From Thermodesulfovibrio sp. (GTDB taxonomy: Bacteria; Nitrospirota; Thermodesulfovibrionia; Thermodesulfovibrionales; Thermodesulfovibrionaceae), in contig JBCNUV010000023.1 in assembly GCA_039630505.1 (NCBI GenBank), forward strand, positions 52,670 to 116,669: a stretch of DNA of 64,000 bases, read 5' to 3'. Made by a program: the position numbers and the translations under genes. Below, piece after piece: positions 15,409 through 48,771 of the stretch (within the stretch, counting starts at the first letter, position 1; each line of letters begins with the position of its first letter). The notes beneath the pieces are model-generated. The model was not told the DNA's origin, did no database searches, and saw only the letters and a program-made list of their open reading frames with translations.

Positions 15409-15422
15409 CCTTACCTCCCTCT

Positions 15423-15809
15423 TTAAAATGGTTCTAAATCTGAAAATTCTTCTGGTGGAATCTGGTTAAAATCTTCAGGTTGAGTAGATTCTCTCTTGGG
15501 AAAGAATCTTATACTATTTGCAATTACTTCAAATTTGCTCTTTTTTTGTCCTTCATACTCCCATCTTCTTTCTCTTAAACGTCCTTCAACTAATACAGTC
15601 CTACCTTTGTTCAAATACTGAGTACATGTTTCAGCTTGTTTACCAAATACTATCGCATCAATAAATAAAGTCTCTTCTTTAATATCTTCACCTTGTTTGT
15701 ATCTTGAGTTAACAGCTATCGGCACGGTAGCAACTGCTACTCCAGAGGGTGTATATCTTATCTCAGGGTCTCTTGTAAGATTTCCTATGAGTATTATTCT
15801 ATTAAACAT
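15423..15809 (-). CDS. ssb: Single-stranded DNA-binding protein
   Basis: 128 aa. [25 protein letters not shown]-fold N-terminus and an acidic C-terminal tip (FSDLEPF). Confidence 0.95.
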
Positions 15810-15813
15810 CTCT

Positions 15814-16176: not shown

Positions 16177-16201
16177 TACATAACCTCCATCTGGACTTTT
16201 A

Positions 16202-16224
16202 GCCCTTATCATCAAGATAAGGGC
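16202..16224 (-). promoter_or_regulatory. Perfect 9-bp stem / 5-nt loop hairpin in the rpsF 5' leader
   Basis: GCCCTTATC-(5 nt)-GATAAGGGC, about 25 nt upstream of the rpsF ATG. No U-tract follows it on either strand, so it is not a classical terminator. Confidence 0.35.
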
Positions 16225-16272
16225 ATGGAGTAAACAAAAGTTACAACTATTTTTATAACATATTTATCACTT

Positions 16273-17175: not shown

Positions 17176-17184
17176 AGGGCTCTC

Positions 17185-33448: not shown

Positions 33449-33459
33449 GAGGTTTTAAA

Positions 33460-33828
33460 ATGAAAGCAATGATAATAATTCTATCAACTTTTTTAGTAAT
33501 TACTTTTTTTCCTATTTTTATATTTGCTCAACCACAGGTTACAATTACACCTTCTAAGGGTGAACCTGCCACAGTAATAACAATTGAAGGAAAGGGTTTT
33601 AAACCAGACGAAGAGATTGACATTATAATAACACTTGATGAAGGAGAAAAAATAGCACTTGGCACAGAAAAAGTAGATATTATAAAAGCAGATGCCAATG
33701 GAACATTCTCGGTAAAATCAGGCATTCCAGTTAATGCAAAGCCTGGTAAGCATAAAATTGAAATTTTTGGAAACAAGGGAACTCAACTACAGACAACAAT
33801 AGAAGTTACACAGAAAGAAAAAAAATAA
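33460..33828 (+). CDS. Small secreted protein with a single Ig-like (beta-sandwich) domain
   Basis: 122 aa. Signal peptide (FIFAQP), then VTITPSKGEPATVITIEGKGFKPDEEIDI ... ADANGTFSV ... AKPGKHKIEI, an IPT/TIG-like strand pattern. Good RBS (AGGAGG). Confidence 0.5.
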   Translation: MKAMIIILSTFLVITFFPIFIFAQPQVTITPSKGEPATVITIEGKGFKPDEEIDIIITLDEGEKIALGTEKVDIIKADANGTFSVKSGIPVNAKPGKHKIEIFGNKGTQLQTTIEVTQKEKK

Positions 33829-33853
33829 AAATTCAGGAGGAAAAGGTTAAAAA

Positions 33854-35818
33854 GTGCGTGAACTCAGAGGTTTCTGGAAACTAATACTAAACATACTTGT
33901 TGGATTATGGGGAATATTTATTCTTTATACTGCTTTACTTGCCGCTCTGCATCCCCTTTTGCAGGGCGGTATCTCTCTTTCTATAGGACTTGCCATCGTA
34001 TTCTTAGTTTATCCCTTCTCAAAAAGAATGCTTAAATGGAATGTACCAAAAGTTTTCCAATATCTTCTAACTGGAACTCAAAATTCACCCTCTTTGCTTG
34101 ATCTTATATTTATTATTATTAGCCTTATTCCATGTATTTACATAATGATTCACTGGGAAGAAGTAGTAAGAAATCCAGGCGTTTTTGAGACCTATCATCT
34201 TGTATTAGCTGTTTTATTGATTATAGCTCTTATTGAAGGAACAAGAAGAGCTCTTGGACTGACAGTTCCTATACTTGTTTTGTTTTTCATTATATATACA
34301 ATAGCAGGTCCCCATATTCCAGGAAGATTTGCTCATCCAGGATTTAGTCTTACAGATATTCTCTATCAGCTTTATTTAATGACAGAGGGAATTTGGGGAC
34401 TTCTTACTGATATGGCAAGTAGAATAATAGCACCTTTTATAATTTTTGGTCCTATCCTATTTGCTACTGGTGTTGGTTCAACTGTTATGGAGCTTTCAAC
34501 ATACTTTGGCGGAAAAATAAGAGGTGGACCTGGACATGTAGCAGTAATATCAAGCTCTCTCTTTGGAATGCTTAGTGGCTCATCTGTAGCAAATGCTGCC
34601 ACAACTGGTTCTTTTACAATTCCTCTTATGAAGAAATTTGGATTCTCCCGTGCGTTTGCCTCTGCTGTAGAGGCAGCAGCCTCTTCTGGTGGACAGATAA
34701 TGCCTCCTATTATGGGTGCTGGATGCTTCATAATGGCAGAGTTTCTCAATATTCCATATACAAACATAATGATAGCTGGATTAATTCCAGCTGTGATATA
34801 TTTTGCAGGTATTGCAGCTGGTGTGTGGATTGAAGCTGGTAGAACAGGCATGGGTAAGCTTCCTAAGGAATTAATGCCAGATTTGAAAACTATTCTAAAA
34901 CCACAAAAAATTTTAAACTTTATACTTCCTATAGGTACTCTCGGTGTTTTACTTTTTATGTTCTTCCCTGCACAAATATGTGCAGCATGGGCAATTGTTG
35001 TATCAGTTGTTTATTACACATTTTTCGGAGGACCTCTTAAGAAAAAGGAAATTTTAAACAGAATAAAGACTATATGGGGAGGACTTTTTGAGGGAGTTGT
35101 AAAGGCTTTAGCATGGCTTATGATAATGATGGCATGTGTGCAGATTGCTGTAAGCCTGATATCTTTAACAGGATTTGGAGTAAAGGTTTCAGAGATAATT
35201 ATTGAGATCTCTGGCTATAATGTTTATCTTGCTCTAATAGCAACAATGCTTACAGCAATAATTCTTGGAATGGGCATGACAACAACCGCTGCCTATGTTA
35301 TAGCTGCTGCTGTTTTAGTTCCTGCACTTCAACAGATGGGAGTAAATCCCCTTGCTGCCCATCTATTCATTTTCTATTTTGCTATTAAGTCTGGATTAAC
35401 TCCCCCTGTTTGTATAACAGTATATACAACAACTGCCATTGCTGGAGGTAGTTGGTTAAGAGCTGCTTGGTATTCTATGAAGTTAGGAATTGGTGGGTAT
35501 ATAATGCCTTTCTTCTTCGTATTTGTTCCAGCCTATCTAATGAAAGGTTCTCCATGGGAGATTTTATTCATATTCATTGGTGCCTTTGTTGCTATGTTTG
35601 CCATTGAAGCAGGTGTTTTAGGTTACTGGACAAAACCTTCCACCCCCCTTGAAAGAGCCCTTTACATATCTGGTGGATTAATAATGATGGCACCTGGATA
35701 CTGGACATTTGTAGGATTAGCACTCTTTTTAATTGGACTTTTACTTGAAAAATTTGATGTCCAGATACCTGTTATTGCAAAAAGACCTGCACATGTCATT
35801 GTAAAACAAAAGGATTAA
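33854..35818 (+). CDS. TRAP transporter fused permease (DctQ/DctM fusion, TAXI-associated type)
   Basis: 654 aa, GTG start, more than 16 TM segments. DctM-like blocks: SSSLFGMLSGSSVANAATTGSFTIPLMKK, EAAASSGGQIMPPIMGAG. Confidence 0.9.
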   Translation: MRELRGFWKLILNILVGLWGIFILYTALLAALHPLLQGGISLSIGLAIVFLVYPFSKRMLKWNVPKVFQYLLTGTQNSPSLLDLIFIIISLIPCIYIMIHWEEVVRNPGVFETYHLVLAVLLIIALIEGTRRALGLTVPILVLFFIIYTIAGPHIPGRFAHPGFSLTDILYQLYLMTEGIWGLLTDMASRIIAPFIIFGPILFATGVGSTVMELSTYFGGKIRGGPGHVAVISSSLFGMLSGSSVANAATTGSFTIPLMKKFGFSRAFASAVEAAASSGGQIMPPIMGAGCFIMAEFLNIPYTNIMIAGLIPAVIYFAGIAAGVWIEAGRTGMGKLPKELMPDLKTILKPQKILNFILPIGTLGVLLFMFFPAQICAAWAIVVSVVYYTFFGGPLKKKEILNRIKTIWGGLFEGVVKALAWLMIMMACVQIAVSLISLTGFGVKVSEIIIEISGYNVYLALIATMLTAIILGMGMTTTAAYVIAAAVLVPALQQMGVNPLAAHLFIFYFAIKSGLTPPVCITVYTTTAIAGGSWLRAAWYSMKLGIGGYIMPFFFVFVPAYLMKGSPWEILFIFIGAFVAMFAIEAGVLGYWTKPSTPLERALYISGGLIMMAPGYWTFVGLALFLIGLLLEKFDVQIPVIAKRPAHVIVKQKD

Positions 35819-35822
35819 AAAT

Positions 35823-35852
35823 AAAAGCCTCAGGCATTAACCTGAGGCTTTT
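35823..35852. terminator. Bidirectional intrinsic terminator between convergent genes
   Basis: AAAAGCCTCAGG-CATTAA-CCTGAGGCTTTT, a 12-bp stem with A/T runs on both sides. The stop codon of the convergent hydrolase gene lies in the loop. Confidence 0.7.
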
Positions 35853-36433
35853 ATTTTTAATATTTCTTCAAAACCAATCCAATGGGATTTTGCTATCAAG
35901 AAAGTCTTAGCATAGGGATATAGGATTTTTAAATCTTCTAAAGCATTTATTGGTAAAATTTTATCATTTATACCCTGAATAAGAATAAGATTTGTTATTT
36001 CAGACTTTAAATTAGATACTTCAGAAGAAAGTAGAAACTCAAGTCCATTAATTAACTTTTTATAGTCAACTTTTTCAGGAAATAAGGGATTACATCCAGC
36101 ATTAACTAAAAAATCCTTTATAACCATTTCAGGTTCTGTCTGCATTTTTTGCATCATTCTCCTTATAATTCTTGGCTTCACATAATAAGTGAATTTTCTA
36201 AATCCTGCAATAACTATAATTTCTTTGAATCTTTCAGAAAAAAAGGACAGATTTTTCAAGATAATATGTCCTCCTGTAGACCATCCCACCAATGTATTAC
36301 CTGATTTATCTTTTAGAACTTTTATTATATCTTTTTCATCTAAGTCAATGAAGGGATTTATAAAATGCCAATCTTCTGGTATATCTCCTAAGGCTTCTTT
36401 AAAACCTGCCCAACCTGAGATGAAAAGATTCAC
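35837..36433 (-). CDS. Short alpha/beta-hydrolase-like protein (possible BioG/BioH-type esterase)
   Basis: 198 aa. LFISGWAG N-terminal strand and a GxSxG nucleophile elbow (GWSTGG). His near the C-terminus (KSHW). Functional assignment is speculative. Confidence 0.5.
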   Translation of the reverse strand: MNLFISGWAGFKEALGDIPEDWHFINPFIDLDEKDIIKVLKDKSGNTLVGWSTGGHIILKNLSFFSERFKEIIVIAGFRKFTYYVKPRIIRRMMQKMQTEPEMVIKDFLVNAGCNPLFPEKVDYKKLINGLEFLLSSEVSNLKSEITNLILIQGINDKILPINALEDLKILYPYAKTFLIAKSHWIGFEEILKIKASG

Positions 36434-37368
36434 TATTGATTGATTATTGCGACGGTTTGTTCAAAACAGTTATTCAACACTGTTGTACTTACACCACCTA
36501 AAATAATATCTCTAATTGGAGAACGACCTTTACGTCCCATTACTATAAGGTCATAGTTACCTTGTTGAATTTCCCTGATAATCTCATCCTTAGGAAAACC
36601 AACAGTACTTTTCGTAATTACTAAATCGGATGGTATTCCCTCATTAATAAATTTTCTTTTAGATTCAATAAGAATTTCTTCTGCTTCCATCTCTGGATCA
36701 ATTCCTTGTCTAAGTCTTTCAAGATATAATGATACATTTATTACTCTTAAAATAGTTATATTTTCTATATTTTTAACAACCTTAGCAAGAGATAAAACAT
36801 GCTCAACAGCCTTCATTGAGTACTCAGAACCATCAACAGGAATAAGAATCTTACCTATAGGTTTTTCTTCTGAAATTCTTTGTCCTATTATGTATATATT
36901 CTGATTTAAAAGACCATAAAGTATTTTTTCTGAGACACTACCAAGGATTATCTTTTTAAACTTTGACATCACCCTCCGGGCAAGCATGACTGTTTTGATA
37001 TCTTCAGTTGTTGATATTTCTATAATCTTACTACCAGGGTCTCCTATCTCCACTTGTTTTTTTATAGCTCCTAAGAAGCCTGTTGTTCTTATATATTTTT
37101 CGTAATCATCTAAAAATGGCATAATTTGTTCATTAATGTAATTTTCTACAAGTTTATCAGCAAAAACCTTATCTTGAATAATTACCATTTTAAAATCTAC
37201 ATTTTTAAGTTTTTCACTAATAGTTTCAAGAGGAATTACATTAAGAAGGGTAACTTCTATCTCTTTTTCTTCAATATATTTTAATAATGAACTTACAAAC
37301 CTTATTGCCTTCTTTGAGTTTTCACTTTTGTCTACAGGAAGCAATATTTTCTTAAAAACATTCTCCAT
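36433..37368 (-). CDS. Tandem universal stress protein (two UspA domains)
   Basis: 311 aa. Two repeats, each starting KILLPVD.SE.S..A and ending G(S/G)V(S)...: ILGSVSEKIL and MGRKGRSPIRDIILGGVSTTVL. Confidence 0.85.
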   Translation of the reverse strand: MENVFKKILLPVDKSENSKKAIRFVSSLLKYIEEKEIEVTLLNVIPLETISEKLKNVDFKMVIIQDKVFADKLVENYINEQIMPFLDDYEKYIRTTGFLGAIKKQVEIGDPGSKIIEISTTEDIKTVMLARRVMSKFKKIILGSVSEKILYGLLNQNIYIIGQRISEEKPIGKILIPVDGSEYSMKAVEHVLSLAKVVKNIENITILRVINVSLYLERLRQGIDPEMEAEEILIESKRKFINEGIPSDLVITKSTVGFPKDEIIREIQQGNYDLIVMGRKGRSPIRDIILGGVSTTVLNNCFEQTVAIINQ

Positions 37369-37369
37369 A

Positions 37370-38050
37370 CTAAAACTCCAAATTGATTTTTTTATTATCT
37401 ATAAAAATAAATGAATCCATTGGCACAACATAGTTTTTATCTAAATAATGCACCTGTATTCCTGAAACAATAGCATAAGTAATTTCATCTGCTTTAGCGA
37501 GAACATCCATAGTTTTTTCAATCTCATTAAAGCTTATCCGAAGAGCTATCTTAGTTAGTTCCATAAGATCAGGAATCTTATCAGATATCTCCCTTTTCAA
37601 CTTTTGGTTCACAAGATTTAACTCTGGATCTTCCTCTTCTTTGTCAGATTTTGACAATGTATTGAGAAATAATATAAGAGCTCCACAAGCAGTTGATTTT
37701 TCTATGCCTTTTCTTTTACAGAATCCTAAATTTCCATCTTTATCTATTCCTATATGGGTAAGTAAATAAAGAACACTTCTTTTTTCTTTTACTTCAGGAA
37801 GATGGCTTAAGAAAACCTTTAAACCTATTTGTCCAGATATATATACTCCTGCAAAACTTGAAAAATTAAAAAAAACTCCCCAATATTTTCTTATCTCTGG
37901 AAGAACGCTCTGACATATCTCATCTCTGCAAAGACAAACACCTGCTATTGTATTATGATAGCTAAATCCAAATTCCTTTAATCTTTCCGATGAAAGCTTT
38001 ATAAAATCTTTCTCTTTAAAATATCTATTAAAAAGTTTACTTAATATCAT
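37370..38050 (-). CDS. Conserved-looking orphan protein with a Cys/Asp ... His ... Cys pattern (function unknown; candidate metal site)
   Basis: 226 aa, soluble. C39-L-C41-R-D43-E44, H99 (LLTHIGID) and C122 (STACGAL). Its stop is 1 nt from the USP gene start, and it lies 34 nt downstream of the 600-aa antiporter-like subunit gene. Confidence 0.5.
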   Translation of the reverse strand: MILSKLFNRYFKEKDFIKLSSERLKEFGFSYHNTIAGVCLCRDEICQSVLPEIRKYWGVFFNFSSFAGVYISGQIGLKVFLSHLPEVKEKRSVLYLLTHIGIDKDGNLGFCKRKGIEKSTACGALILFLNTLSKSDKEEEDPELNLVNQKLKREISDKIPDLMELTKIALRISFNEIEKTMDVLAKADEITYAIVSGIQVHYLDKNYVVPMDSFIFIDNKKINLEF

Positions 38051-38084
38051 AATTGCTCAACTATTATATCATAAATTTTACTTT

Positions 38085-39887
38085 TTACATGTATCCTCTT
38101 GTGTAGTAAATTATCAAATAAAGCAAAAGAAAGAATATAGACCATAAAACAAGAACACCAACTGATATGGGCAGTAAAGGATCACCTGGATATTTTAATT
38201 TTTCAGCTCTTAAACGAGCTTTAATCTTTTCTCTTTTTTCAGGAATTGAAAAAACAAGAATTATAGAATCAATAAGAATTTTTACTGCTAAAAGAGGATT
38301 TTTTGTAAACCATCCTAAGAAATTTGGAATTTTGATAAAAAATATTGTGTTTAATCTTTGCATAATATGAGAACCCGGGTTATTAATAAACCAAACAAAA
38401 GCTTGAGCTCCTTTTCTGTAAAACCAATCCAAATCAAGATTAGTAGCCCTCATTTCTTCAGGAAAAACTCCTGCTTTCATAAGAAGTACATAAGCAAGTA
38501 TTCCAGCCAACAAAAGTTGAGTTGTTGATACTATATGAGAGGCAGTATAAGGTTCAAAATTTACAGGATATGGAAGAAGACTGTAAAGAAAACTAGGCAT
38601 AACTCCTATAAAGATGCATAAAAATGCTGTAATTCCCATAGCAATAAGCATATGAAGAGGAGACTCCTTTGTTCTTATTCCTGAGTCATGGGCAAAAAAG
38701 GCATAATAAGGAACCTTTATTCCTGCATGTTCAAGCACACCAACAGAGGCAAAGGTAAGCATAAACCAAATTGGTACTAACCCTTCTATAGCAGAGGCTT
38801 CAACTACCATTGACTTACTTACAAATCCGCTAAATAGTGGAAAAGCAGAGATTGATGCAGCACCTATAATGCAAAATAGGGCTGTAAGAGGCATGCTCTT
38901 GTAAAGTCCTCCTAAGTCAGTGCATTTAATTTTTCCTGTTCTATAGATTACAGCTCCCATAGACATAACAAGTAAAGCTTTATATAGAATATGACAAAAA
39001 ACATGTGAAAATGTTCCGTTAAGAGAAAGTTGAGTGCCAATACCTATTCCTGTGACCATATATCCAAGTTGGTTTATTAGACTGTATGAAAGTACTTTTC
39101 TTAAGTCATTTTCAATAACCGCAAAAAATATAGGAAAAACTGTCATAATAGCACCAATCCATATAAGAATTTCTTCTCCTGGAAAGGCTCTTGCAAGAAC
39201 ATAAATAGCTGTCTTGGTAGTGAAAGTCCACATAAAAACTCCACCTGTAGGTGTTGTCTTTGGATAGGCATCAGGTAGCCAAGCATGAAGTCCTGGAAAG
39301 GCACAATTTATTCCAAATCCTAAAAATATTAACCAAGAACTTAATCCATCAAGTCCAATATAACCAAAGCTTAAAGAACCTGTTTCAAAGTAACGTATTA
39401 CAACTCCGAATAAAAGAAATAATCCTCCCACTATATGAACTAATAGATATCTTAATCCTGCAGTATAGGACTCCTTTGTTCTTGATGCCCATATGAGATA
39501 GAAAGCACTGAATGCCATCATTTCCCAAAATATAAAAAGAGTAAATAAATCACCAGCAAAAACTACTCCTAATGCTGCACCTGAATATACAATAGAAGCT
39601 ATATGTTGAGCAGGCTCTTTTACATGGAGTGAGTAAAGTAACGCAATAAATGTGATTATATGGTAGATATACCCAAAAAATATGCTAATTTTATCAACTT
39701 TGACAACAATAAGCTTATACTCCAGAAAATTTATACTGTAATGAACACCTTCAGGTAGATTTATAAAATTAATAAAACCTAAAACTGGCAAAGACAATAA
39801 ATAAATACTTAAAGCCTTACCTCTTAAAAAGGGAATAACAAAAGCACCAAATATAAATAATATTGCAGGAGGAATTGGACTAATCAC
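38085..39887 (-). CDS. NuoL/MrpA(N)/MrpD-like antiporter subunit with a long C-terminal extension
   Basis: 600 aa. Proton_antipo_M core (FWEMMAFSAFYLI, HAWLPDAYP, SHVFCHILYKALLVM, FSGFVSK). Followed by a tail of about 120 aa containing an amphipathic stretch and a final TM helix. Confidence 0.85.
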   Translation of the reverse strand: MISPIPPAILFIFGAFVIPFLRGKALSIYLLSLPVLGFINFINLPEGVHYSINFLEYKLIVVKVDKISIFFGYIYHIITFIALLYSLHVKEPAQHIASIVYSGAALGVVFAGDLFTLFIFWEMMAFSAFYLIWASRTKESYTAGLRYLLVHIVGGLFLLFGVVIRYFETGSLSFGYIGLDGLSSWLIFLGFGINCAFPGLHAWLPDAYPKTTPTGGVFMWTFTTKTAIYVLARAFPGEEILIWIGAIMTVFPIFFAVIENDLRKVLSYSLINQLGYMVTGIGIGTQLSLNGTFSHVFCHILYKALLVMSMGAVIYRTGKIKCTDLGGLYKSMPLTALFCIIGAASISAFPLFSGFVSKSMVVEASAIEGLVPIWFMLTFASVGVLEHAGIKVPYYAFFAHDSGIRTKESPLHMLIAMGITAFLCIFIGVMPSFLYSLLPYPVNFEPYTASHIVSTTQLLLAGILAYVLLMKAGVFPEEMRATNLDLDWFYRKGAQAFVWFINNPGSHIMQRLNTIFFIKIPNFLGWFTKNPLLAVKILIDSIILVFSIPEKREKIKARLRAEKLKYPGDPLLPISVGVLVLWSIFFLLLYLIIYYTRGYM

Positions 39888-40122
39888 TGTAGTAATCCTC
39901 TCTCCTTTTAACTAATGGTCTTAAAATGTGCTTTGAAACCATTATAAGAAAAACAAAGGCCACGAAACCGAATGAAGCATAAAAGAAAGGATAATTCTCC
40001 CATGGAAAATAAATATGTTTATGTATGAAAAATTCAGCAATTAAGGAAAATACTAAAAATAAATAAAAAACTGCAAAAAAGATCTTTACATTTTTCGGAC
40101 TATCAAAAAAGTATCTTTTCAT
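39880..40122 (-). CDS. Small two-TM membrane protein
   Basis: 80 aa. Strong RBS (AAGGAGG). Its stop overlaps the start of the 600-aa subunit by 8 nt. Two hydrophobic helices. Confidence 0.6.
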   Translation of the reverse strand: MKRYFFDSPKNVKIFFAVFYLFLVFSLIAEFFIHKHIYFPWENYPFFYASFGFVAFVFLIMVSKHILRPLVKRREDYYSD

Positions 40123-40135
40123 TACTTGAACCTCC

Positions 40136-40231
40136 TTAAAGGGTATTAAAAAGAATATAGACTAAATAAAGAAAACAAACTACAAAAATTACATAAAAAA
40201 TCTTCAAAAACAAAGAATCAGCTTTTTTCAT
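40136..40231 (-). CDS. 31-aa single-TM micro-ORF (absent from the supplied ORF track)
   Basis: Read by hand: GGAGG-ATGAT-ATG, then MKKADSLFLKIFYVIFVVCFLYLVYILFNTL*. It starts 1 nt after the mrpD stop and ends just upstream of the RBS of the 80-aa gene. Confidence 0.4.
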   Translation of the reverse strand: MKKADSLFLKIFYVIFVVCFLYLVYILFNTL

Positions 40232-40232
40232 A

Positions 40233-41714
40233 TCATCCTCCGAAGGTCTGATTCACTATCAATATTATTAGCTTTATAAAAGGATGCGGACATAAAAATA
40301 CTACCAATGTTAAAACTGCAGTCAAAACTGTTGGAATTAAGACAAAAATTGGAGCTTCATTTATTCCATTGTATTTACTATCCTTTGATTTTTTCATAAA
40401 AGCTACATAAACTATTGGCATAAAGTAACAAGCATTTAGTATTGTACTTATAGCTAAAATAGCCAATACAAAAATCTTATCTGACTCAATAGCACCAACA
40501 CTAAGATACCACTTACTAATAAAACCTGCAAAAGGTGGAACTCCTATCATTGAGAGAGCTCCTATTGTAAATGATGCCATAATAAGAGGCATTCTTTTTC
40601 CTATTCCATCAAGTTCGCTTATTTTTGTTTTATAAGTTGTCACATATATTGCTCCTGCAGCAAAAAATAGAGTAATCTTACCAAAGGCATGGGCTATAAT
40701 ATGAAATATACTTCCTTTTAGTGCTGAAGGACTAAGAAGAGCTGCACCAAGAACAATATAAGAAAGCTGACTTACTGTAGAGTAGGCAAGTCTTAGTTTT
40801 AAGTTATCCTGTCTTAAAGCTATAACTGAGGCTGCCACTATAGTGAAAGATGCAACTACAGCAAGTACTGTTTCTAGATTAAGACTTTTTAAAAGATCAA
40901 CGCCAAATATATAAAAAACAACTCTTAGAATCATGAATACGCCAGTCTTTACTACAGCTACAGCATGAAGAAGAGCACTTACAGGTGTTGGCGCCACCAT
41001 TGCTGCAGGAAGCCAACTGTGAAGTGGCATTATAGCAGCTTTTGTAATTCCTGCAATATAAAGAAGAAAAGTAATCGTTAACAATGAAGAGGAAATATCA
41101 TTACTTAAATTTCCTCCTTTTGAAAAATAAAGATTTCCTGAAAGACAGTAAGTAAGCACAATTGCTGTAAGTTGAAATGCCACAGAAGTACTAAGTAAAT
41201 AAGCCAGATACTTTCTGGCATTTTTCTTTGCTTCCTCAGTTTCTTTATGAGCCACAAGAGGATATGTAGCTATCGTTATAATTTCATAAAATACAAAAGC
41301 AGTAAAAATATTTGCTGAAAAAGCTACGCCCATTGTAGCAGAAAGAGTTATTGCAAAATAAACAAAATAACGAGTCTGTTTATGTTCATTAAGTCCACGC
41401 ATATATCCTATTGAGTAAAAAGAAGTAATAATCCAAAGAAAAGATGCTGTCATTGCAAAAAATAATCCTAGGGCATCAATTCTAAAGTGTAAAATAAGCT
41501 CAGATGTTATTCTAAATAAGCAGTATTCAATTACTTTCCCACACAGAATATCTGGTAACATCGAAACAACTATTAAAAATTTAAAAATAGAAGCAAGAAT
41601 ACTCCATGTCTCTCTCAAATTTCTTAATTTTTCACCAGTTATTGCTATAAGAAAAGCTGATACTGCTGATACGGCTATTGCAAGTACAGGTTTTATTGAA
41701 ATACTTGTCTCCAT
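40233..41714 (-). CDS. mrpD: Mrp/Mnh antiporter subunit D-like (NuoM/N-like), copy 2
   Basis: 493 aa with about 14 TM segments. Motifs HSWLPAAMVAPTPVSALLHA, HIIAHAFGKITLFFAAG, PPFAGFISKW. Confidence 0.9.
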   Translation of the reverse strand: METSISIKPVLAIAVSAVSAFLIAITGEKLRNLRETWSILASIFKFLIVVSMLPDILCGKVIEYCLFRITSELILHFRIDALGLFFAMTASFLWIITSFYSIGYMRGLNEHKQTRYFVYFAITLSATMGVAFSANIFTAFVFYEIITIATYPLVAHKETEEAKKNARKYLAYLLSTSVAFQLTAIVLTYCLSGNLYFSKGGNLSNDISSSLLTITFLLYIAGITKAAIMPLHSWLPAAMVAPTPVSALLHAVAVVKTGVFMILRVVFYIFGVDLLKSLNLETVLAVVASFTIVAASVIALRQDNLKLRLAYSTVSQLSYIVLGAALLSPSALKGSIFHIIAHAFGKITLFFAAGAIYVTTYKTKISELDGIGKRMPLIMASFTIGALSMIGVPPFAGFISKWYLSVGAIESDKIFVLAILAISTILNACYFMPIVYVAFMKKSKDSKYNGINEAPIFVLIPTVLTAVLTLVVFLCPHPFIKLIILIVNQTFGG

Positions 41715-41718
41715 AAAT

Positions 41719-43200
41719 CTAAAATCCCTTTGGCAAACTAAATTTAATCACAGATGAGATAATCTCTCCACTGTAAAGTCCTATTATTAGAATTGCTAAG
41801 GCTGTTATAACTATTGGAATCATCATACTTATAGGTAATTCCCGAAAGTTATACATGGGAGTATTCTCATTTTTTGTAAAGTAAATTTTTTCAAGAATTC
41901 TGAAAAATATGAGTGCATTAACTAAACTACTAAAAATCAGAATGACTGCAGAAACCAAATATCCTGCCTTGACAGCACCTACTATTAAATACCACTTACT
42001 AAAAAATCCTGCAGTAGGAGGAATTCCTATCATAGACAAAGCTGCTATGGTAAATGCTGCCATTGTGATTGGCATATTTCTGTTAAGTCCATTAAAGTCT
42101 TCGATATTTCTTGAACCAATTCTATAAAAGACTCCTCCTGCAATCATAAAGAGACAACCAATCATTAATGAATCATTCAATATGTGTAAAACAGCACCTA
42201 TAAATCCCTCTTTATTCCCTATATTTATGCCAAATACCATATATCCTATCTCTGCAATCAATATGTAAGAAAGAGTTCTCTTAAAGTCCTTCTGTCCTAT
42301 TGCAATGAGACTGCCAAAAAATATCGCTATTGTTGACCACCAGATAAGAATATTTGAAAGAGGAGTCATCTCTATTAGAAATTTTGGCTCAAAAAGTGTA
42401 AAAGATATTCTGATTAAAACATATATGCCAACCTTTGTTACAGTTGCTGAAGCAAAAGCACTAACAGCAGAAGGCGCAAAAGTATACGAGTCTGGTAGCC
42501 ATCTATGAAGTGGAAATAAAGCTATTTTAATTCCAATACCTACTATAAAAAATGCTAAGGCTGTGAGAGTCACCTTTGATTCATAAAGAGATGGTAGAAG
42601 TCTTGTAAGATCGCTAATATTTAATGAACCTGTAATGATATATATATATCCTACTCCCAACAAATAAAAACAAGCTCCTATGGTACCCATTATTATATAG
42701 TGAAAACTTGCAAGAACAGAGCGTTTCTCTCCAATAGCTACCAAAGCATATGCTGAAAGAGAGGCTATTTCAAGAAACACATAAAGATTAAAGATATCTC
42801 CAGTGACGGTTATTCCAAATAATCCTGTTGCAAGAAGTAAGTATGTAGAGTAGAAATATGGTAGTTTTGCCTTTGAAATCTCCTTTTTTACACTATCCTT
42901 AGAGTAAATAGCCACGATAAAGCTCATTGATGAAACGATGACAATTAAATAGGCATTTAAATGATCTATCACATATTCGATTCCCCATGGAGCCATCCAG
43001 CCACCAAGTCTGTATCTTAATACTCCGAAGTTAATAACTTGGCATAATATATCAATTGAAAGAGCTACACATATACCTAAAACCAATACAAAAAAAGGAT
43101 AACAAAGTTTCCTTTGAAGAAAATTTAAAAATATATTAACAAATGAAGCAATTAAAGGAATAACAACGATTAAGATTGAGGAGTGTTCTGACAGATTCAT
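41719..43200 (-). CDS. mrpD: Mrp/Mnh antiporter subunit D-like (NuoM/N-like), copy 1
   Basis: 493 aa. Motifs HRWLPDSYTFAPSAVSAF, LHILNDSLMIGCLFMIAG, PPTAGFFSKW. Confidence 0.9.
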   Translation of the reverse strand: MNLSEHSSILIVVIPLIASFVNIFLNFLQRKLCYPFFVLVLGICVALSIDILCQVINFGVLRYRLGGWMAPWGIEYVIDHLNAYLIVIVSSMSFIVAIYSKDSVKKEISKAKLPYFYSTYLLLATGLFGITVTGDIFNLYVFLEIASLSAYALVAIGEKRSVLASFHYIIMGTIGACFYLLGVGYIYIITGSLNISDLTRLLPSLYESKVTLTALAFFIVGIGIKIALFPLHRWLPDSYTFAPSAVSAFASATVTKVGIYVLIRISFTLFEPKFLIEMTPLSNILIWWSTIAIFFGSLIAIGQKDFKRTLSYILIAEIGYMVFGINIGNKEGFIGAVLHILNDSLMIGCLFMIAGGVFYRIGSRNIEDFNGLNRNMPITMAAFTIAALSMIGIPPTAGFFSKWYLIVGAVKAGYLVSAVILIFSSLVNALIFFRILEKIYFTKNENTPMYNFRELPISMMIPIVITALAILIIGLYSGEIISSVIKFSLPKGF

Positions 43201-43571
43201 TTTTTCTTTCTCAGAATTTCAATTATTTCATCTTCATCAAGAGTTTTATACTGTTTATAAAGCATCATAATCACAGCAAGGGCGACACCAAATGTACTTA
43301 CCATTACCACTATGGCAGTAAGCATAAGCACATGAGGTAAAGGATTAATATACTTTGCTGGATCTATGACTTCTTGAGATTTAATTAAAATAGGTATTGT
43401 AGCATCTTTTTTATAGGCTGTTGATATGAAAAATAGGATTATTGCAGTCTGAAATATATTCATTCCTACGATTTTTTTTACCAGATTCCTTTTTGCTATC
43501 ATGGCATAAAATCCTATCATCATAAGAGCTATGTAAATCCAATAGTTATATTTACCAATAACTGTCTCCAT
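43197..43571 (-). CDS. mrpC: Mrp/Mnh antiporter subunit C (NuoK-like)
   Basis: 124 aa. Motifs NLVKKIVGMNIFQTAIILFF and NPLPHVLMLTAIVV. Confidence 0.9.
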   Translation of the reverse strand: METVIGKYNYWIYIALMMIGFYAMIAKRNLVKKIVGMNIFQTAIILFFISTAYKKDATIPILIKSQEVIDPAKYINPLPHVLMLTAIVVMVSTFGVALAVIMMLYKQYKTLDEDEIIEILRKKK

Positions 43572-44033
43572 TTAGACCTCTCCTTTTTCATGTTTACCAA
43601 AAGTTGTAAGATTAAGGAATATGGATACCATAACAGCCATAACAGTAATTCCAACCCCAATCTCTATAATTAAAGTGCCTAAGGCGCGAACCTTAACAGA
43701 GTCAGTTGGAATAATCTTATTAAGAATTCCATAGTTTAAGTACTCTGCTCCTAAAAGTATGCACAAAACTCCCACTAACGCATATATAAGAACTCCAAAA
43801 GCCATTAAAAGAGTATTTTTTTTCTCTGAAAATCTTCTTTTCATCCAGTTTATATCATAGGCAATTACCATTAGGATAAATGATGCACCTAAGATACATC
43901 CTCCTTGAAATCCTCCACCTGGACTATAATGTCCATGTGCAATAACATAAAAAGCAAAAAGTTGAATGAGAGGAATCATAATTCTACAAACTGTTTGTAT
44001 TATGAGATCATCATAAAGTCTTATCATCCTCAA
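43572..44033 (-). CDS. mrpB: Mrp/Mnh antiporter subunit B (MnhB domain; MbhF-like)
   Basis: 153 aa. HGHYSPGGGFQGG motif of the MnhB domain. Confidence 0.85.
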   Translation of the reverse strand: MRMIRLYDDLIIQTVCRIMIPLIQLFAFYVIAHGHYSPGGGFQGGCILGASFILMVIAYDINWMKRRFSEKKNTLLMAFGVLIYALVGVLCILLGAEYLNYGILNKIIPTDSVKVRALGTLIIEIGVGITVMAVMVSIFLNLTTFGKHEKGEV

Positions 44034-44295
44034 ATCTCCTTAAAAGCAGAATACATACAACAGCAGCAGTAAATATCACTGTTGTTTCTCCTAAGGTATC
44101 ATAGCCTCTGTAGTCTGCAAGAACTGAAGTAACAGCATTTGGAGTGGCAGTTTCTTCAATGGTTTTTTCAATATAACGTGGTGACACATGTAGGCTTGCT
44201 GGAGAGTTAGGATCTCCCCAGTCTGGCATATCAAGAGTGCTGTATATAAGCACAGCACCTGTAAGTATAACTATTATTAAAGCAAAAAACTTCAA
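44011..44295 (-). CDS. MnhB-related small subunit (MbhE-like)
   Basis: 94 aa. NAVTSVLADYRGYDTLGETTVIFTA, the N-terminal MnhB-domain signature. Confidence 0.75.
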   Translation of the reverse strand: MKFFALIIVILTGAVLIYSTLDMPDWGDPNSPASLHVSPRYIEKTIEETATPNAVTSVLADYRGYDTLGETTVIFTAAVVCILLLRRFEDDKTL

Positions 44296-44537
44296 TCTTT
44301 TGTCCTTCTTGTTGTTTGATAAATTGCACCTATAAAAAAGGCAGTACTAATTCCAGCACCAACAGCAGCCTCTGTAAAAGCCACATCAACAGCTCCCATT
44401 TCTGCCCATAAAATGCACATAAGAAAGCTGTAAGCACCTAAAAGTATTGCAGAACTTAATAAGTCTTTAACATGAATGGCTGCTAAAGCACATATTAGAA
44501 GAATAGTTAATATTAATATTTCCATTATCCATGTCAT
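44292..44537 (-). CDS. DUF4040 / MrpA C-terminal-domain-like small subunit (MbhD-like)
   Basis: 81 aa with three TM segments. GAVDVAFTEAAVGAGIS signature. Confidence 0.75.
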   Translation of the reverse strand: MTWIMEILILTILLICALAAIHVKDLLSSAILLGAYSFLMCILWAEMGAVDVAFTEAAVGAGISTAFFIGAIYQTTRRTKD

Positions 44538-44875
44538 TTCTTTAAATCCTCCTTTTTTATGGGAATTACTCCACTGTCTAATCCCGCCTTTGTCAAAGCA
44601 TGGGTTGCTGTAGGATTAGCAAGAAATATGAAAAAAATTATAAAGAAAATTTTTATAGAAACAAGTATTGTGCTAAAGGAAAAATCCTCTTTAAGTATAT
44701 ACACTACTACTCCCAAAAGAACCAATACTGCACCAAGAGTATCTCCCTTCCCTGTTGCTTGAAGTTTACAATAGAAATCTGGAAATCTTAAAAGTCCAAC
44801 AGTGGCAGTGAAGAAAAAGAACAATCCTATAACTACAATTATGATTATAAAAATATTTATAATAAAATCAATCAT
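44534..44875 (-). CDS. mrpG: Mrp/Mnh antiporter subunit G
   Basis: 113 aa. GLLRFPDFYCKLQATGKGDTLG signature. Confidence 0.9.
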   Translation of the reverse strand: MIDFIINIFIIIIVVIGLFFFFTATVGLLRFPDFYCKLQATGKGDTLGAVLVLLGVVVYILKEDFSFSTILVSIKIFFIIFFIFLANPTATHALTKAGLDSGVIPIKKEDLKK

Positions 44876-45180
44876 TTTCCAGTCTCCCTGTCTTTTAAAA
44901 ATTTAGTTCCCGGCTTTATACTCTTTCTAAGCCTAAAAAACTTAGATGCTGCAAGTGTAGCTATAAAGTTAAGAAGAGCATAAGCAAGAGAAATATCAAC
45001 AAACATTTCTATTCTTTTATAATAAACTCCCAACAAAACAAGAATTAATGTAGTTTTAGTTCCAATAACTCCCACTGCGGCAATTCTATCCATAATTGTA
45101 GGACTAAATATAGCACGATAAAGGCATAAAATAACCATTATTCCAAGAACTATTATTGTCAATACAAAAAAGTTTTCCAT
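44872..45180 (-). CDS. mrpF: Mrp/Mnh antiporter subunit F
   Basis: 102 aa. YRAIFSPTIMDRIAAVGVIGTK signature. Confidence 0.85.
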   Translation of the reverse strand: MENFFVLTIIVLGIMVILCLYRAIFSPTIMDRIAAVGVIGTKTTLILVLLGVYYKRIEMFVDISLAYALLNFIATLAASKFFRLRKSIKPGTKFLKDRETGK

Positions 45181-45190
45181 TATTTATTTT

Positions 45191-45697
45191 CTAATCAATT
45201 TTAATATCCTCTTCAAATATCTTAGCAACCTTTTCTTCCATCTCTCCAGTAAGCAAATCTTCAGCAACTTTTCTACTGATGCAGTGGATGATAAAAATAT
45301 TATCCTTAGTAATGTCCATAGTTATTGTTCCAGGTGTAAGAATTATCGAGTTTGCAAATACAACCTTTGATATATCCTTTTTAAGTTTAGCTTTGTATTC
45401 AAGCACAAAAGGTTCTATTGGCATTTTAGGATGTAATACTAAGTAAGCAACATGAATATTTGCAAGAATTATCTGATAAAATAGCCAAGGAATATATTTT
45501 ATAAATCTAAATCCCTCTATTATGTGAGATTTTGTAATTTTTTCGCTACTAAATAATAAGTCTCCCGAGATTAACGTAATTATTAAACAAGATATTGCTC
45601 CAAGTGACAAATGAAAAATATCAAACATTCCAGAAAAGATACACCAAAACCCAAAAAGAATGAAAAAGGTAACTACTTTCTTATTCATATCTACCAC
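45191..45697 (-). CDS. mrpE: Mrp/Mnh antiporter subunit E
   Basis: 168 aa. N-terminal TM helices, NIHVAYLVL and SIILTPGTITMD (MnhE signature). The true start may be the ATG 9 nt downstream. Confidence 0.85.
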   Translation of the reverse strand: MVDMNKKVVTFFILFGFWCIFSGMFDIFHLSLGAISCLIITLISGDLLFSSEKITKSHIIEGFRFIKYIPWLFYQIILANIHVAYLVLHPKMPIEPFVLEYKAKLKKDISKVVFANSIILTPGTITMDITKDNIFIIHCISRKVAEDLLTGEMEEKVAKIFEEDIKID

Positions 45698-45732
45698 CTT
45701 CTCTGCATAAAACAGAAATCATGCTGTAATAT

Positions 45733-46248
45733 TTATTTTTTTATCATTTCATCTGAAATTATCTCAAATATTTCAAACATTCTTACTACACCTAAAAGTT
45801 TTTTCTTGTCTTCAATTACAGGTAAAACAGGTAAGTTAAAATTAATCATTAAGTAAGCTGCTTTGAAGATTGAATCTGAAGGATCAACAAAATGTTTTAT
45901 AGGAACCATTACTTCATTTACAGGTTTTTGAAGAAAACCCTTAAAACTCTCACTGAAAAGGTTTTCCCAATCAATTTCTATTTTTTGTGCTACTGAAGAA
46001 TCTGACACTACTGCTAAGTTATTATTTGAAGAAAAAATTCCTCTTAAAACATCTTTAGGCGTTACTGTTCCAAGAAGATTATATTTTTCATCAAATACAA
46101 GCACCACAAGCGGGTCTGTATATTTTTGAGACTGAAAAAAAGATGTTTTTATTACTTTTATTACTTGTTCAATACTAAACCAATAGGGAATGTGAGGATA
46201 CTCAAATAACTCCAACATTATGTCCTTTACGACCTTCCTCTCTGTCAT
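45733..46248 (-). CDS. CBS-domain pair protein
   Basis: 171 aa. Two CBS repeats (VKDIM ... LLGTVTPKDVLR ; VNEVMVP ... LPVLPVIEDKKKLLGVVRMFEIF). First gene of the mrp-like cluster, 35 nt upstream of mrpE. Confidence 0.85.
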   Translation of the reverse strand: MTERKVVKDIMLELFEYPHIPYWFSIEQVIKVIKTSFFQSQKYTDPLVVLVFDEKYNLLGTVTPKDVLRGIFSSNNNLAVVSDSSVAQKIEIDWENLFSESFKGFLQKPVNEVMVPIKHFVDPSDSIFKAAYLMINFNLPVLPVIEDKKKLLGVVRMFEIFEIISDEMIKK

Positions 46249-46469
46249 CCTCTACCTCCGGAGATTTATAAAAGTTTTTAAAACATTTAATACTATAACA
46301 TGTTTTTATATAAATTTTTAGAGAAAGCCTTCGCTCAAAAATAATTTCTCTGAAAAAGTATTATTTTTCACAGAATTGACAGAAATAGCAACCTATCATT
46401 TTAAGCGATATTATAAAAAAGAAGGATGTAATCCTAAGCAAGAACTTAAAAAATGACATGGAAAGGCTT

Positions 46470-47424: not shown

Positions 47425-48771
47425 TTAAATTTTTTCGGCAAGCTTTAATGAGTTTTCAATACAATCATTAACACTTACACCTCTGTATGCATTGCCAGTA
47501 AGATATAATCCTGGAAATTTATTAAGTATTGTATCTATACGATTTAGTTTGTCTTCATGCCCTAACTCATACTGGGGAATTGCCTTTTCCCATCTAAATA
47601 TCTTCACAAATTCAGGGTCTCCTTTAATGTTTAAAATACTTTTTAATTCACGCAAAACTGTCTCAGTAAGATTTTCATCAGATAACATGGCAAGTTCAGG
47701 TGCTCTTCTACCTCCAATCATGCTTCTAAGCAAAACATAGCCTTCAGGTGCCCTGTTTGGAAAAATACTTGAATCAAAAAGAGTTCCAAGAATCTTTCTT
47801 TTCTCCCTGTAGGGTATTAAAAAACCATAAAGAGATGTTCCAAAACCAATCTGCTCTTTTTTAAATCCAAAAGCCACTACACTTAAAGGTGGATAAGGAA
47901 TAGTTTTTAAGATATCTGAAATTTCTTTATTAAGTTCCTTTAATATTTCTGCTGTTTCATAGGCAGGACATGAAAGCACTACTTTTTCTGATTCAAATAT
48001 ATCTCCATTTTCAAGATAAACAGAATAGTAACTATTTTGCTTCGTGATGCCAATTACTCTGTTACCTTTTATTATCTTTGATGAAAGATTACACTCTAAA
48101 CTATAAACAAGCTCTGCCATTCCAGTTTTAAATGACATAAGAACTACGGATGGTTGAACTTTTACATCTTTTCTTTCTTTTCTTAGAGCAATTAATCCTC
48201 TTATAAGTCCACCATATTTCTTTTCAAGCCAATAAACCTTTGAAAAGCAGCTTTTCATACTCATCTTTGAAGGATCTCCTGCATAGATTCCAGTAGACAA
48301 GGCATCAATCAGCTTTTCATAAAACTCTCTTCCAACTCTGCGAGTGACAAAACTTTCAACAGTCTCGTCTGTGTGTTCTTTTACTGGTGCAACAAAGTAT
48401 TCTTTTAGCATTCTTATCTTGCCAGAAATTGAAAGAATTGGTGAAAGAAAAAATTTAATTGGATTCTCTGGAACTTTTGTCATTTTTCCATCTATAAGTA
48501 GATATCTTACTTTTGAGTTATCACTTCCTTTAATAGGCTCTATATTTAGTTCACTGGCAAGACTTAGTGTAGAAAGTTTGTTATTTAAAAAACCATTAAC
48601 ACCACCTTCACATAAAAATCCTGAGATATTTTCTGTAACTATTTTGCCACCTACTTTTTTTTCAGCCTCTATTATCCTCAAATCAAGCTGAGGATTTTTC
48701 TTAAGCAAGAAATAAGCAAGGGAAAGTCCTGAAATACCTCCTCCTACAATAACTAATTCTGCTGAGCCCAT
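47425..48771 (-). CDS. hemY: FAD-dependent protoporphyrinogen/coproporphyrinogen III oxidase (HemY/CgoX type)
   Basis: 448 aa. IVGGGISGLSLAYFL dinucleotide fold. C-terminal GLYLTGNAYRGVSVNDCI, typical of HemY. Confidence 0.85.
   Translation of the reverse strand: MGSAELVIVGGGISGLSLAYFLLKKNPQLDLRIIEAEKKVGGKIVTENISGFLCEGGVNGFLNNKLSTLSLASELNIEPIKGSDNSKVRYLLIDGKMTKVPENPIKFFLSPILSISGKIRMLKEYFVAPVKEHTDETVESFVTRRVGREFYEKLIDALSTGIYAGDPSKMSMKSCFSKVYWLEKKYGGLIRGLIALRKERKDVKVQPSVVLMSFKTGMAELVYSLECNLSSKIIKGNRVIGITKQNSYYSVYLENGDIFESEKVVLSCPAYETAEILKELNKEISDILKTIPYPPLSVVAFGFKKEQIGFGTSLYGFLIPYREKRKILGTLFDSSIFPNRAPEGYVLLRSMIGGRRAPELAMLSDENLTETVLRELKSILNIKGDPEFVKIFRWEKAIPQYELGHEDKLNRIDTILNKFPGLYLTGNAYRGVSVNDCIENSLKLAEKI

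Follow-up and report, generated by a model that had tools for sequence, protein, structure and literature searches.

Why should the gene for a carbonic anhydrase-like protein lie behind a string of cation/proton antiporter genes? The question is raised by a minus-strand gene string in a 64-kb stretch of contig JBCNUV010000023.1 (the whole stretch is referred to as the window), which comes from a Thermodesulfovibrio metagenome-assembled genome (MAG), phylum Nitrospirota. An earlier annotation made from the letters of the DNA and its open reading frames (ORFs), hereafter the sequence-only reading, saw an Mrp/Mbh-like operon with an orphan Cys/His protein and proposed that an antiporter-like subunit might drive a carbonic anhydrase-like partner in a CO2/bicarbonate or pH-homeostasis machine. 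Based on profile searches, structural models, and surveys of related loci, we favor, with a probability of about 0.55, a co-regulated Na+/H+/bicarbonate homeostasis module serving in alkaline, salty water over one machine that pumps CO2.

The supposed orphan, a 226-aa protein with 100% identity to a Thermodesulfovibrio sp. MAG protein that NCBI lists as "hypothetical protein," belongs to a known family. It matched Pfam LCIB_C_CA (PF18599) over residues 14 to 211 with 135.7 bits, against a cut-off of 25 (E 1.9e-39), and Chlamydomonas LCIB in the PDB with an E value of 9e-24. A profile built from 29 bacterial homologues matched CrLCIC and CrLCIB over their full length (E ~1e-50) and the diatom protein PtLCIB4 with an E value of 4e-17. 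This far better profile match to the green-algal proteins LCIB and LCIC than to PtLCIB4 hints at an exchange of genes between bacteria of this kind and the green lineage. Residues C41, R42, D43, H83, H99, and C122 were invariant in the 29 homologues, and the invariant positions align with the sites of the S47R and H88A mutants of PtLCIB4, the Cys beside S47 included, and with the conserved His and Cys residues of LCIB structures. We take C41, H99, and C122 to be the Cys-His-Cys zinc ligands of the published LCIB structures. A C-R-D-E motif, shared with Chlamydomonas LCIB, occurs at the first zinc-binding Cys. The AlphaFold model (predicted local distance difference test [pLDDT] score of 85.7), in which neither a signal peptide nor a membrane segment was found, was closest in Foldseek searches to Chlamydomonas LCIB (5k5w_B; TM score, 0.80) and PtLCIB4 (0.79 to 0.81), followed by the beta-type carbonic anhydrase (CA) Rv3588c. 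By profile, residues, and predicted fold, the 226-aa protein is an LCIB-family beta-type CA, referred to below as LCIB. The suspicion that the Cys/His protein was CA-like was therefore correct, and its status as an orphan was not.

The gene content and order proposed for the string were borne out by the ORF listing and by Pfam and NCBIfam profile searches of the ORFs, on which all assignments below are based. Sixteen minus-strand ORFs run from 46248 to 35837, and neighbors overlap by 1 to 23 nt or are separated by 0 to 35 nt. The features of the string are as follows, in the direction of transcription.

46249 to 46469, minus strand: AT-rich intergenic region 5' of the CBS gene, a 221-nt gap after an AEC-family permease gene; probable main operon promoter region
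45733 to 46248, minus strand: CBS-pair protein, 171 aa, first gene (Pfam CBS, E 1.1e-11)
45191 to 45697, minus strand: MrpE (Pfam MNHE, E 3.5e-34)
44872 to 45180, minus strand: MrpF (Pfam MrpF_PhaF, E 6e-14)
44534 to 44875, minus strand: MrpG (Pfam PhaG_MnhG_YufB, E 6e-25)
44292 to 44537, minus strand: MbhD-like subunit, a piece of the MrpA C-terminal region as a gene of its own (Pfam MbhD, E 3.4e-20)
44011 to 44295, minus strand: MbhE-like subunit, likewise a piece of the MrpA C-terminal region as a gene of its own (Pfam MbhE, E 1.7e-11; NCBIfam matches to the MrpA C-terminal part)
43572 to 44033, minus strand: MrpB (Pfam MnhB, E 3.2e-32)
43197 to 43571, minus strand: MrpC, NuoK-like (Pfam Oxidored_q2, E 4.3e-19)
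41719 to 43200, minus strand: D1, antiporter-like subunit 1, 493 aa, MrpD/MbhH type (PF00361, E 2.4e-60)
40233 to 41714, minus strand: D2, antiporter-like subunit 2, 493 aa, leaning toward MrpA-N/NuoL (PF00361, E 1.8e-53; weak Proton_antipo_N match)
40136 to 40231, minus strand: s31, 31-aa single-helix membrane peptide, a shortened copy of a conserved 40- to 46-aa ORF
39880 to 40122, minus strand: s80, 80-aa two-helix membrane protein, no Pfam family, conserved companion of D600
38085 to 39887, minus strand: D600, antiporter-like subunit 3, 600 aa, NuoL/MrpA-N/MbsH'-like (PF00361, E 1.4e-40)
38063 to 38071, minus strand: putative extended -10 promoter element TGATATAAT, within the 34-nt spacer ahead of the LCIB gene
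37370 to 38050, minus strand: LCIB-family (theta/beta-type) CA, 226 aa, predicted cytoplasmic (Pfam LCIB_C_CA)
36433 to 37368, minus strand: tandem universal stress protein (USP), 311 aa (Pfam Usp in two stretches, E 1.3e-33)
35837 to 36433, minus strand: Hyd, 198 aa, weakly alpha/beta-hydrolase-like, last gene (Peptidase_S9, E 0.008; BioH, E 4e-7)
35814 to 35861, no strand assigned: bidirectional intrinsic terminator between the string and a convergent TRAP transporter gene, with a 20-bp stem and T-runs on both strands

All Mrp subunit families were represented above the Pfam gathering score (MNHE, MrpF_PhaF, PhaG_MnhG_YufB, MbhD, MbhE, MnhB, Oxidored_q2, and three PF00361 proteins), and the three antiporter-like subunits of the sequence-only reading were thereby confirmed. 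In Bacillus, a Glu residue in transmembrane helix 5 (TM5) and a Lys residue in TM7 of MrpA/MrpD-type subunits are essential to antiport (PMC5703873). Both 493-aa subunits possess the TM5 Glu (..LEI.. and ..YEI..) and the TM7 Lys (GIKIA and ITKAA). The best solved relatives of D1 in a PDB sequence search were MbsH, MbhH, and MrpD. As had been read, Pfam searches of the 64-kb window revealed no hydrogenase or NuoB/C/D/H/I-like module. By gene content and key residues, the cluster is a member of the Mrp/CPA3 family, and antiport is its predicted activity.

The third antiporter-like subunit, D600, gave a full-length match of 737 bits to NCBIfam NF009310 ("Na+/H+ antiporter subunit D") and has full-length relatives at ~60% identity in MAGs labelled Actinobacteria, Syntrophales, and Nitrospinae. 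Its best PDB sequence match was 6u8y_X, which is MbsH' of the archaeal MBS complex, and the best fold matches of its predicted model (pLDDT, 84) were MrpA, NuoL, and NdhF. The model comprises a 14-helix core, a further helix, ~80 helical residues, and a last membrane anchor helix, a secondary-structure pattern suggestive of a lateral helix. D600 retains the TM5 Glu, K225, H295, and K358. Residues ~192 to 196 read GINCA, with Asn instead of the TM7 Lys, as in all 10 aligned family members. Since one of these members comes from a cluster with no LCIB gene nearby (L049), the Lys-to-Asn change is not specific to LCIB-linked clusters.

The Mrp part of the string is not peculiar to the window. Scanning of metagenome contigs with the D600 alignment gave 80 loci, and the order E-F-G-MbhD-MbhE-B-C-D1-D2-s80-D600 recurred in essentially all of those with enough flank. 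The s80 gene preceded that of D600 in 77 of the 80 loci, the remaining 3 ending at a contig edge, and s80 homologues, with a conserved C-terminal ...KR.EDYYD, preceded D600 in 92 fetched loci. Peptide s31 is a short version of a 40- to 46-aa single-helix peptide with the motif HEPVPGY(R/K)..FY, whose ORF lies between those of D2 and s80 in ~60 of 87 loci. LCIB was present in 2 of the 80 sampled metagenome loci and absent from 78. Because the same parts are conserved in LCIB-free Mrp clusters, neither the three-pump architecture nor the two micro-proteins are an adaptation to the CA; the view of D600, s31, and s80 as such a specialization was rejected. The three-pump Mrp, with its pair of conserved micro-proteins, is a type of antiporter that is widespread but has barely been described.

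Two variations on this cluster type were also observed. In L067, L080, and L097, the genes are arranged in the alternative order D2-s80-D600 followed by E-B-F-G-MbhD-MbhE-C-D1, from which the cluster type appears to be built of two movable halves. In L074 (positions 1 to 18015; metagenome contig SDBV01004447.1), and also in L093, a D2-s80-D600-like trio occurs without MrpEFGBC. The trio is surrounded by genes for an MtrB/PioB porin, several multiheme cytochromes c, a fusion of a cytochrome-bd-subunit-I-like protein to cytochrome c, and an EB_dh heme protein, and it falls inside the D600-tree clade that holds all LCIB-linked clusters. This gene context suggests that D2-s80-D600 is a portable antiporter-like module, here joined to a redox system.

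With which genes does LCIB travel? Species-representative genomes were scanned, giving 46 LCIB loci, nearly all of them in Thermodesulfovibrionales/Nitrospirota, with some in Thermodesulfobacterium and one in an Acidobacteriota MAG. Three main layouts were found.

Type A, CBS-Mrp-LCIB-USP-Hyd: the window, L001-L004, L006-L008
Type B, GntR-CBS-DASS-LCIB-Mrp: L017-19, L036, L042
Type C, the commonest, GntR-CBS-DASS-LCIB-CitMHS/ArsB-like permease-USP, no Mrp: most other loci

An intermediate layout, CBS-DASS-Mrp-LCIB-USP, was present in L051 and L086. The most frequent neighbors of LCIB were the CBS protein and a DASS Na+:anion symporter (TIGR00785), and its downstream partner was either a CitMHS/ArsB-like permease or the Mrp cluster. 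A CBS homologue was encoded directly 5' of mrpE or of the DASS permease gene in nearly all LCIB loci, and a USP gene was located 3' of LCIB, or of the permease gene following it, in most. The association of CBS and USP genes with the Cys/His protein, first noticed in the window, thus holds across loci. The CitMHS-type permease was considered as an NhaD-like antiporter equivalent to Mrp and gave sub-threshold NCBIfam matches to MamN and ArsB. Wider synteny is also recognizable, as L016 has the order PPO-AEC-...-CBS-DASS-LCIB-CitMHS-USP...Hyd and the window the order PPO-AEC-CBS-Mrp-LCIB-USP-Hyd (PPO, protoporphyrinogen oxidase).

The Mrp cluster was directly adjacent to LCIB in 12 of ~35 evaluable loci, and about two thirds had no Mrp nearby. 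For one ~8-kb unit in a ~2-Mb genome, this adjacency is far above chance. In a tree of D600, every LCIB-linked Mrp cluster fell in one clade, and LCIB was kept across the rearrangement between types A and B. Owing to this retention through rearrangements, the co-location of Mrp and LCIB appears to be selected. In the LCIB tree, type B proteins were interspersed with type C proteins, indicating that Mrp and the CitMHS-like permease swap at short evolutionary distances. We found no fixed bond between LCIB and the 600-aa subunit: LCIB follows D600 in some loci, precedes mrpE in others, and mostly stands between DASS and CitMHS/ArsB-like permease genes in loci devoid of Mrp. Since relatives pair the CA-CBS-USP core with Na+-coupled anion permeases instead of or besides Mrp, the CA would serve Na+- and H+-coupled transport generally. 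In a MAG labelled Actinobacteria (GCA_018333515.1; L047/L048, positions 1 to 21794), the arrangement TauE-USP-LCIB-Mrp lies beside an ATP sulfurylase gene. There are two LCIB genes in this locus: the full-length one precedes mrpE, the other encodes 145 aa, and both have TauE and USP genes close by.

Signals around the genes of the string bear on how LCIB is expressed. The CBS gene has a GGAGG ribosome-binding site 7 nt 5' of its ATG. Similar sites precede the genes for s31 (GGAGG 5' of the ATG), s80 (AAGGAGG 5' of the ATG), and D600 (GGAGG type), and the 3' end of the s80 gene overlaps the D600 start by 8 nt. No Shine-Dalgarno sequence was present between TGATATAAT and the ATG of the LCIB gene. 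The sequence TGATATAAT itself (38071 to 38063) is an extended -10 element located 12 nt before that ATG in the window. The same element also occurs in L001-L004, L006, L007, and L008, 8 to 12 nt before the LCIB ATG (15 nt in L003 and L004 if counted to the aligned start codon), and the other letters of the spacer have diverged. Conservation of this element indicates that the string may form two transcription units. LCIB, USP, and Hyd are probably expressed from a promoter of their own with a very short leader, besides read-through from the mrp genes. The hairpin at 35814 to 35861, 3' of the last gene, was the sole strong terminator, and no convincing internal terminators were found within the string.

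Other members of the family were informative on the nature of LCIB. Fusions of a response-regulator receiver domain to LCIB, 360 to 389 aa in length, were found in L052 (899 to 1981; P0251) and as proteins P0256 to P0258, P0261, and P0263, and their genes adjoin GntR-CBS-DASS. The CA domain of these fusions would be the output of a two-component system. Ten long members were picked from the 150 best of 1555 LCIB family representatives; no membrane-domain fusion was detected by Pfam among these ten, which contained tandem LCIB, ankyrin, EF-hand, or amine-oxidase domains. Together, the receiver fusions and the promoter-like element suggest that LCIB behaves as a soluble, separately controlled enzyme. 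In one protein, P0379 (729 aa), an amine-oxidase/protoporphyrinogen-oxidase-like domain is fused to LCIB, and a protoporphyrinogen oxidase gene lies near the LCIB operon in the window (47425 to 48771), in L016 (3 to 776), and in L037 (17724 to 19211). The association of protoporphyrinogen oxidase with LCIB may be a coincidence or a gene-calling artefact.

A link to physiology is provided by Thermodesulfovibrio sp. N1, the nearest cultured strain with the Mrp-LCIB arrangement. Its contig displays D600-LCIB-USP-Hyd, followed by the same TRAP genes as in the window. Strain N1 has been described as the genus's first facultatively alkaliphilic member, its pH optimum being 8.5 (Frank et al. 2016, PMC5165239). 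Among five Thermodesulfovibrio genomes, the Mnh/Mrp cluster was found in N1 only and was absent from the neutrophilic species T. yellowstonii, T. islandicus, T. aggregans, and T. thiophilus (PMC5165239). The same report describes N1 as devoid of autotrophic C1 fixation pathways and makes no mention of a CA (PMC5165239). The locus of the Thermodesulfovibrio LCIB protein labelled "MULTISPECIES," taken from one neutrophilic assembly, was of type C, with no Mrp within 10 kb; LCIB of the neutrophilic relatives therefore works without Mrp. As N1 has no autotrophic carbon fixation pathway, a CO2-concentrating role is unlikely, and an autotrophic role of this kind was rejected. Of the two functions offered by the sequence-only reading, pH homeostasis fits best.

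We propose that the homeostasis module would operate as follows. The first 13 genes encode a CBS-pair protein, the probable regulator, and a 12-gene Mrp-type Na+/H+ antiporter with a split MrpA and, as an addition, a third subunit that is NuoL-like. Powered by the membrane potential, this antiporter would move Na+ out and H+ in. In the cytoplasm, the soluble LCIB-type CA would hydrate CO2, which the cell itself releases in oxidizing pyruvate or lactate or which leaks in from outside, to form bicarbonate and a proton. The CA would in this way retain acid equivalents and bicarbonate inside the cell and speed buffering, which would be useful in alkaline surroundings with little free CO2. Expression or activity would probably be tuned to the nucleotide or energy state by the tandem USP and the CBS protein. 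Gene identities, synteny patterns, the conservation of CA active-site residues, and the predicted folds were shown by the analysis; which way catalysis runs, a part in adaptation to alkaline conditions, and regulation by the CBS and USP proteins are inferred. A precedent is provided by cyanobacteria, in which an mrp/mnh operon shares its regulation with the Na+/bicarbonate symporter SbtA and has been proposed to supply the Na+ gradient (PMC4390856).

Several observations weigh against this proposal. The link to alkaliphily depends on one cultured strain, N1. Uncatalyzed CO2 hydration is fast at 65 °C, and the benefit of a free CA is less obvious under such conditions. LCIB is retained by nearly all evaluable clusters of the Mrp clade in which it occurs, a tighter bond than is usual for a loose functional relation. 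Finally, isolated Chlamydomonas LCIB is reportedly inactive as a CA in vitro, and the diatom enzyme PtLCIB4, with the motif C-S-D-E, is said to be active. If this inactivity holds, a partner or some activating step might be required for catalysis, and docking of LCIB to the antiporter would then be favored.

Such docking is the core of the first alternative, a vectorial CA. LCIB would dock on the cytoplasmic face of D600, s80, and s31, the proton would leave through D600, and the ion gradient would drive the conversion of CO2 to bicarbonate against equilibrium, by analogy with DabAB and NDH-1MS-CupA. We regard this as conceivable but unlikely. LCIB directly follows D600 in the window, in L001-L004, L006-L008, L051, and L086, and in strain N1, but it precedes mrpE, ~8 kb away from the D600 gene, in L017-19, L036, L042, L047, and L102. 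The strong retention of LCIB in one clade of the D600 tree would fit a physical partnership; against this stand the roughly two thirds of LCIB loci with no nearby Mrp, the neutrophilic Thermodesulfovibrio genomes that have none, and the 78 of 80 sampled clusters of this Mrp type that have no LCIB. In NDH-1MS, CupA binds at the NuoL-like end position, and D600 is a NuoL-like end piece with a lateral helix in its predicted model. The model of LCIB, however, offers no membrane-binding segment, its gene has a promoter-like element of its own, and the receiver fusions, together with the lack of a membrane-domain fusion among the ten scanned long members, point to a free enzyme. The absence of the TM7 lysine from all 10 aligned D600-family members and its presence in the other two subunits could speak for docking, but the change is not specific to LCIB-linked clusters. 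The portable D2-s80-D600 trio, also found with cytochromes in L074, would be in keeping with docking, and algal LCIB/C has been called a putative vectorial CA, the energization of which is open (PMC8438413). The more specific claim that LCIB bound to the NuoL-like end module formed by D600, s80, and s31 is a gradient-driven one-way CO2 hydratase is rather unlikely, and the direct energy coupling between antiporter and CA put forward in the sequence-only reading received no direct support from this analysis. If LCIB is docked in this manner, this would be the third independent marriage of a complex-I-type proton channel and a CA, after NDH-1MS/CupA and DabAB, and the first such pairing with the LCIB family, providing a bacterial model of directional algal LCIB. 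A CA physically coupled to the antiporter would be a new kind of inorganic-carbon pump.

The second alternative, which we consider improbable, is that the string supports Na+-coupled uptake of sulfate or another anion. The DASS, CitMHS/ArsB-like, and TauE permeases of the relatives would import the anion with Na+, and Mrp would expel the Na+. The CA would provide protons and bicarbonate near the transporters, either balancing the proton consumption of sulfate reduction or giving bicarbonate as a counter-ion, and the lineage of the window would have kept only the Mrp and CA parts in the operon. DASS/TauE-type permeases indeed flank LCIB in most loci, and both the DASS and the TSUP/TauE families are candidate sulfate transporters of sulfate reducers (PMC5840216). 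The ATP sulfurylase gene beside TauE-USP-LCIB-Mrp in L047 points in the same direction, as do the named carriers, which include sulfate reducers (Thermodesulfovibrio and Thermodesulfobacterium) and Dissulfurispira, most others being uncultured Nitrospirota/Thermodesulfovibrionales MAGs. However, DASS, CitMHS, TauE, and GntR genes are all absent from the 64-kb window, and anion uptake fits the window less well than its relatives. Regulators of the GntR/UTRA family, to which the adjacent regulator belongs, usually sense organic ligands, which also speaks against it, and the literature searched contained no experimental evidence tying CA to bacterial sulfate uptake.

It is very unlikely that the genes are mere neighbors with no shared function, the Mrp cassette having been inserted by chance into an existing CBS-DASS-LCIB-USP locus. 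The promoter-like element of LCIB and the varying position of the Mrp cassette relative to this gene would be accounted for, but adjacency in 12 of the ~35 evaluable loci, its retention through rearrangements over a whole clade, and the CBS gene directly heading the mrp genes would not. Least credible of all is a different substrate, by which the LCIB-like protein would be a beta-CA-fold hydrolase of, e.g., carbonyl sulfide (COS) or carbon disulfide (CS2), of use to a sulfur-metabolizing thermophile: beta-CA-fold enzymes with COS/CS2 hydrolase activity are known and the carriers inhabit sulfidic hot environments, but the nearest proteins by sequence and fold are LCIB proteins, then true beta-CAs, and the constant neighbors are ion transporters, not sulfur enzymes.

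The remaining genes in and around the string were also inspected. The ORF of the last gene was confirmed, but its assignment as an alpha/beta hydrolase stems from weak matches: the 198-aa protein has no PDB relative by sequence and gave only weak Pfam and NCBIfam matches. The gene is conserved 3' of USP in type A loci and in strain N1. Directly upstream of the string lies a heme biosynthesis block (47425 to 53339, minus strand) encoding glutamyl-tRNA reductase, porphobilinogen deaminase, a uroporphyrinogen methylase/synthase fusion, protoporphyrinogen oxidase, and a cytochrome c assembly protein. On the other side, a convergent TAXI-type TRAP transporter (32438 to 35818, plus strand) shares the terminator at 35814 to 35861 with the operon. 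Its genes encode an NMT1_3 binding protein, a 122-aa protein, and a fused 654-aa DctQM-type permease, and the same set is found at L134 (4157 to 7526) and in strain N1. No structured RNAs were found by Rfam in the window.

How does the string compare with known systems? It resembles the Mrp group 3 clusters, which have an irregular order and duplicated mrpD, mrpC, or mrpB genes, as in the cyanobacterial mrpCDCDEFGBB (PMC5703873), in that it has members of all Mrp families, a split MrpA, and additional MrpD-like subunits. The cyanobacterial cluster of this group is co-regulated with inorganic-carbon uptake genes (PMC4390856). Unlike these clusters, the string follows an MBH-like order, encodes three antiporter-like subunits together with a pair of conserved small peptides, and includes genes for an LCIB-type CA and for CBS and USP proteins. 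The archaeal MBH and MBS membrane arms (PDB 6cfw and 6u8y) share the order E-F-G-MbhD-MbhE-B-C-H-like, and MbsH' is the nearest solved relative of D600 by sequence. In contrast to MBH and MBS, the window encodes no hydrogenase, sulfane reductase, or NuoB/C/D/H/I-like module, and plain antiport is predicted. The pairing of Mrp with a CA may help to explain the alkaliphily of one Thermodesulfovibrio lineage.

CAs paired with membrane transporters provide a second set of comparisons. In DabAB (DAB/MpsAB), a beta-CA-like protein is likewise encoded beside a PF00361 antiporter-like membrane protein, but the CA family is another one, and the membrane partner here would be a 12-subunit Mrp, not a single DabB. 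DabA (PF10070, DUF2309) had no Pfam match in any ORF of the string, which is therefore not a DAB system. In NDH-1MS (NdhF3/NdhD3/CupA/CupS), a CA-like protein sits at the distal NuoL-like subunit, a likeness that would apply only if LCIB docks on D600. In contrast to NDH-1MS, neither a CupA/ChpY-type protein nor a redox module was found among the Pfam matches of the string and its neighbors, and there is no photosynthetic electron input. Felce and Saier reportedly described, in 2004, CAs fused to or encoded beside SulP-family anion transporters. The likeness lies in the genetic pairing of a CA with ion-coupled anion permeases, as seen for DASS, CitMHS, and TauE in the relatives, but the CA and transporter families differ, and in the window the partner is a cation/proton antiporter.

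The closest comparison for LCIB itself is with the algal and diatom proteins. Chlamydomonas LCIB/LCIC and diatom PtLCIB3/4 (theta-CA; PDB 5k5w, 5b5x, and 5b5y) share its Pfam family, fold, and zinc-ligand positions, and the C-R-D-E motif is that of Chlamydomonas. Algal LCIB, a key part of the CO2-concentrating mechanism, is regarded as a one-way CO2 trap, with its energization open (PMC8438413). In the literature searched, we came across no account of bacterial LCIB genes lying beside those of Mrp or DASS transporters. The loci surveyed here reveal a compact bacterial LCIB branch that is repeatedly encoded with Na+- and H+-coupled transporters and with CBS, USP, or receiver-domain regulators, and N1 offers a cultured, tractable prokaryotic system for the function and control of LCIB. 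In contrast to the algal and diatom proteins, the LCIB of the window is bacterial, consists of a compact 226-aa core devoid of a transit peptide, and belongs to an anaerobic heterotrophic sulfate reducer, where its setting is a neighborhood of ion transporters, not a pyrenoid.

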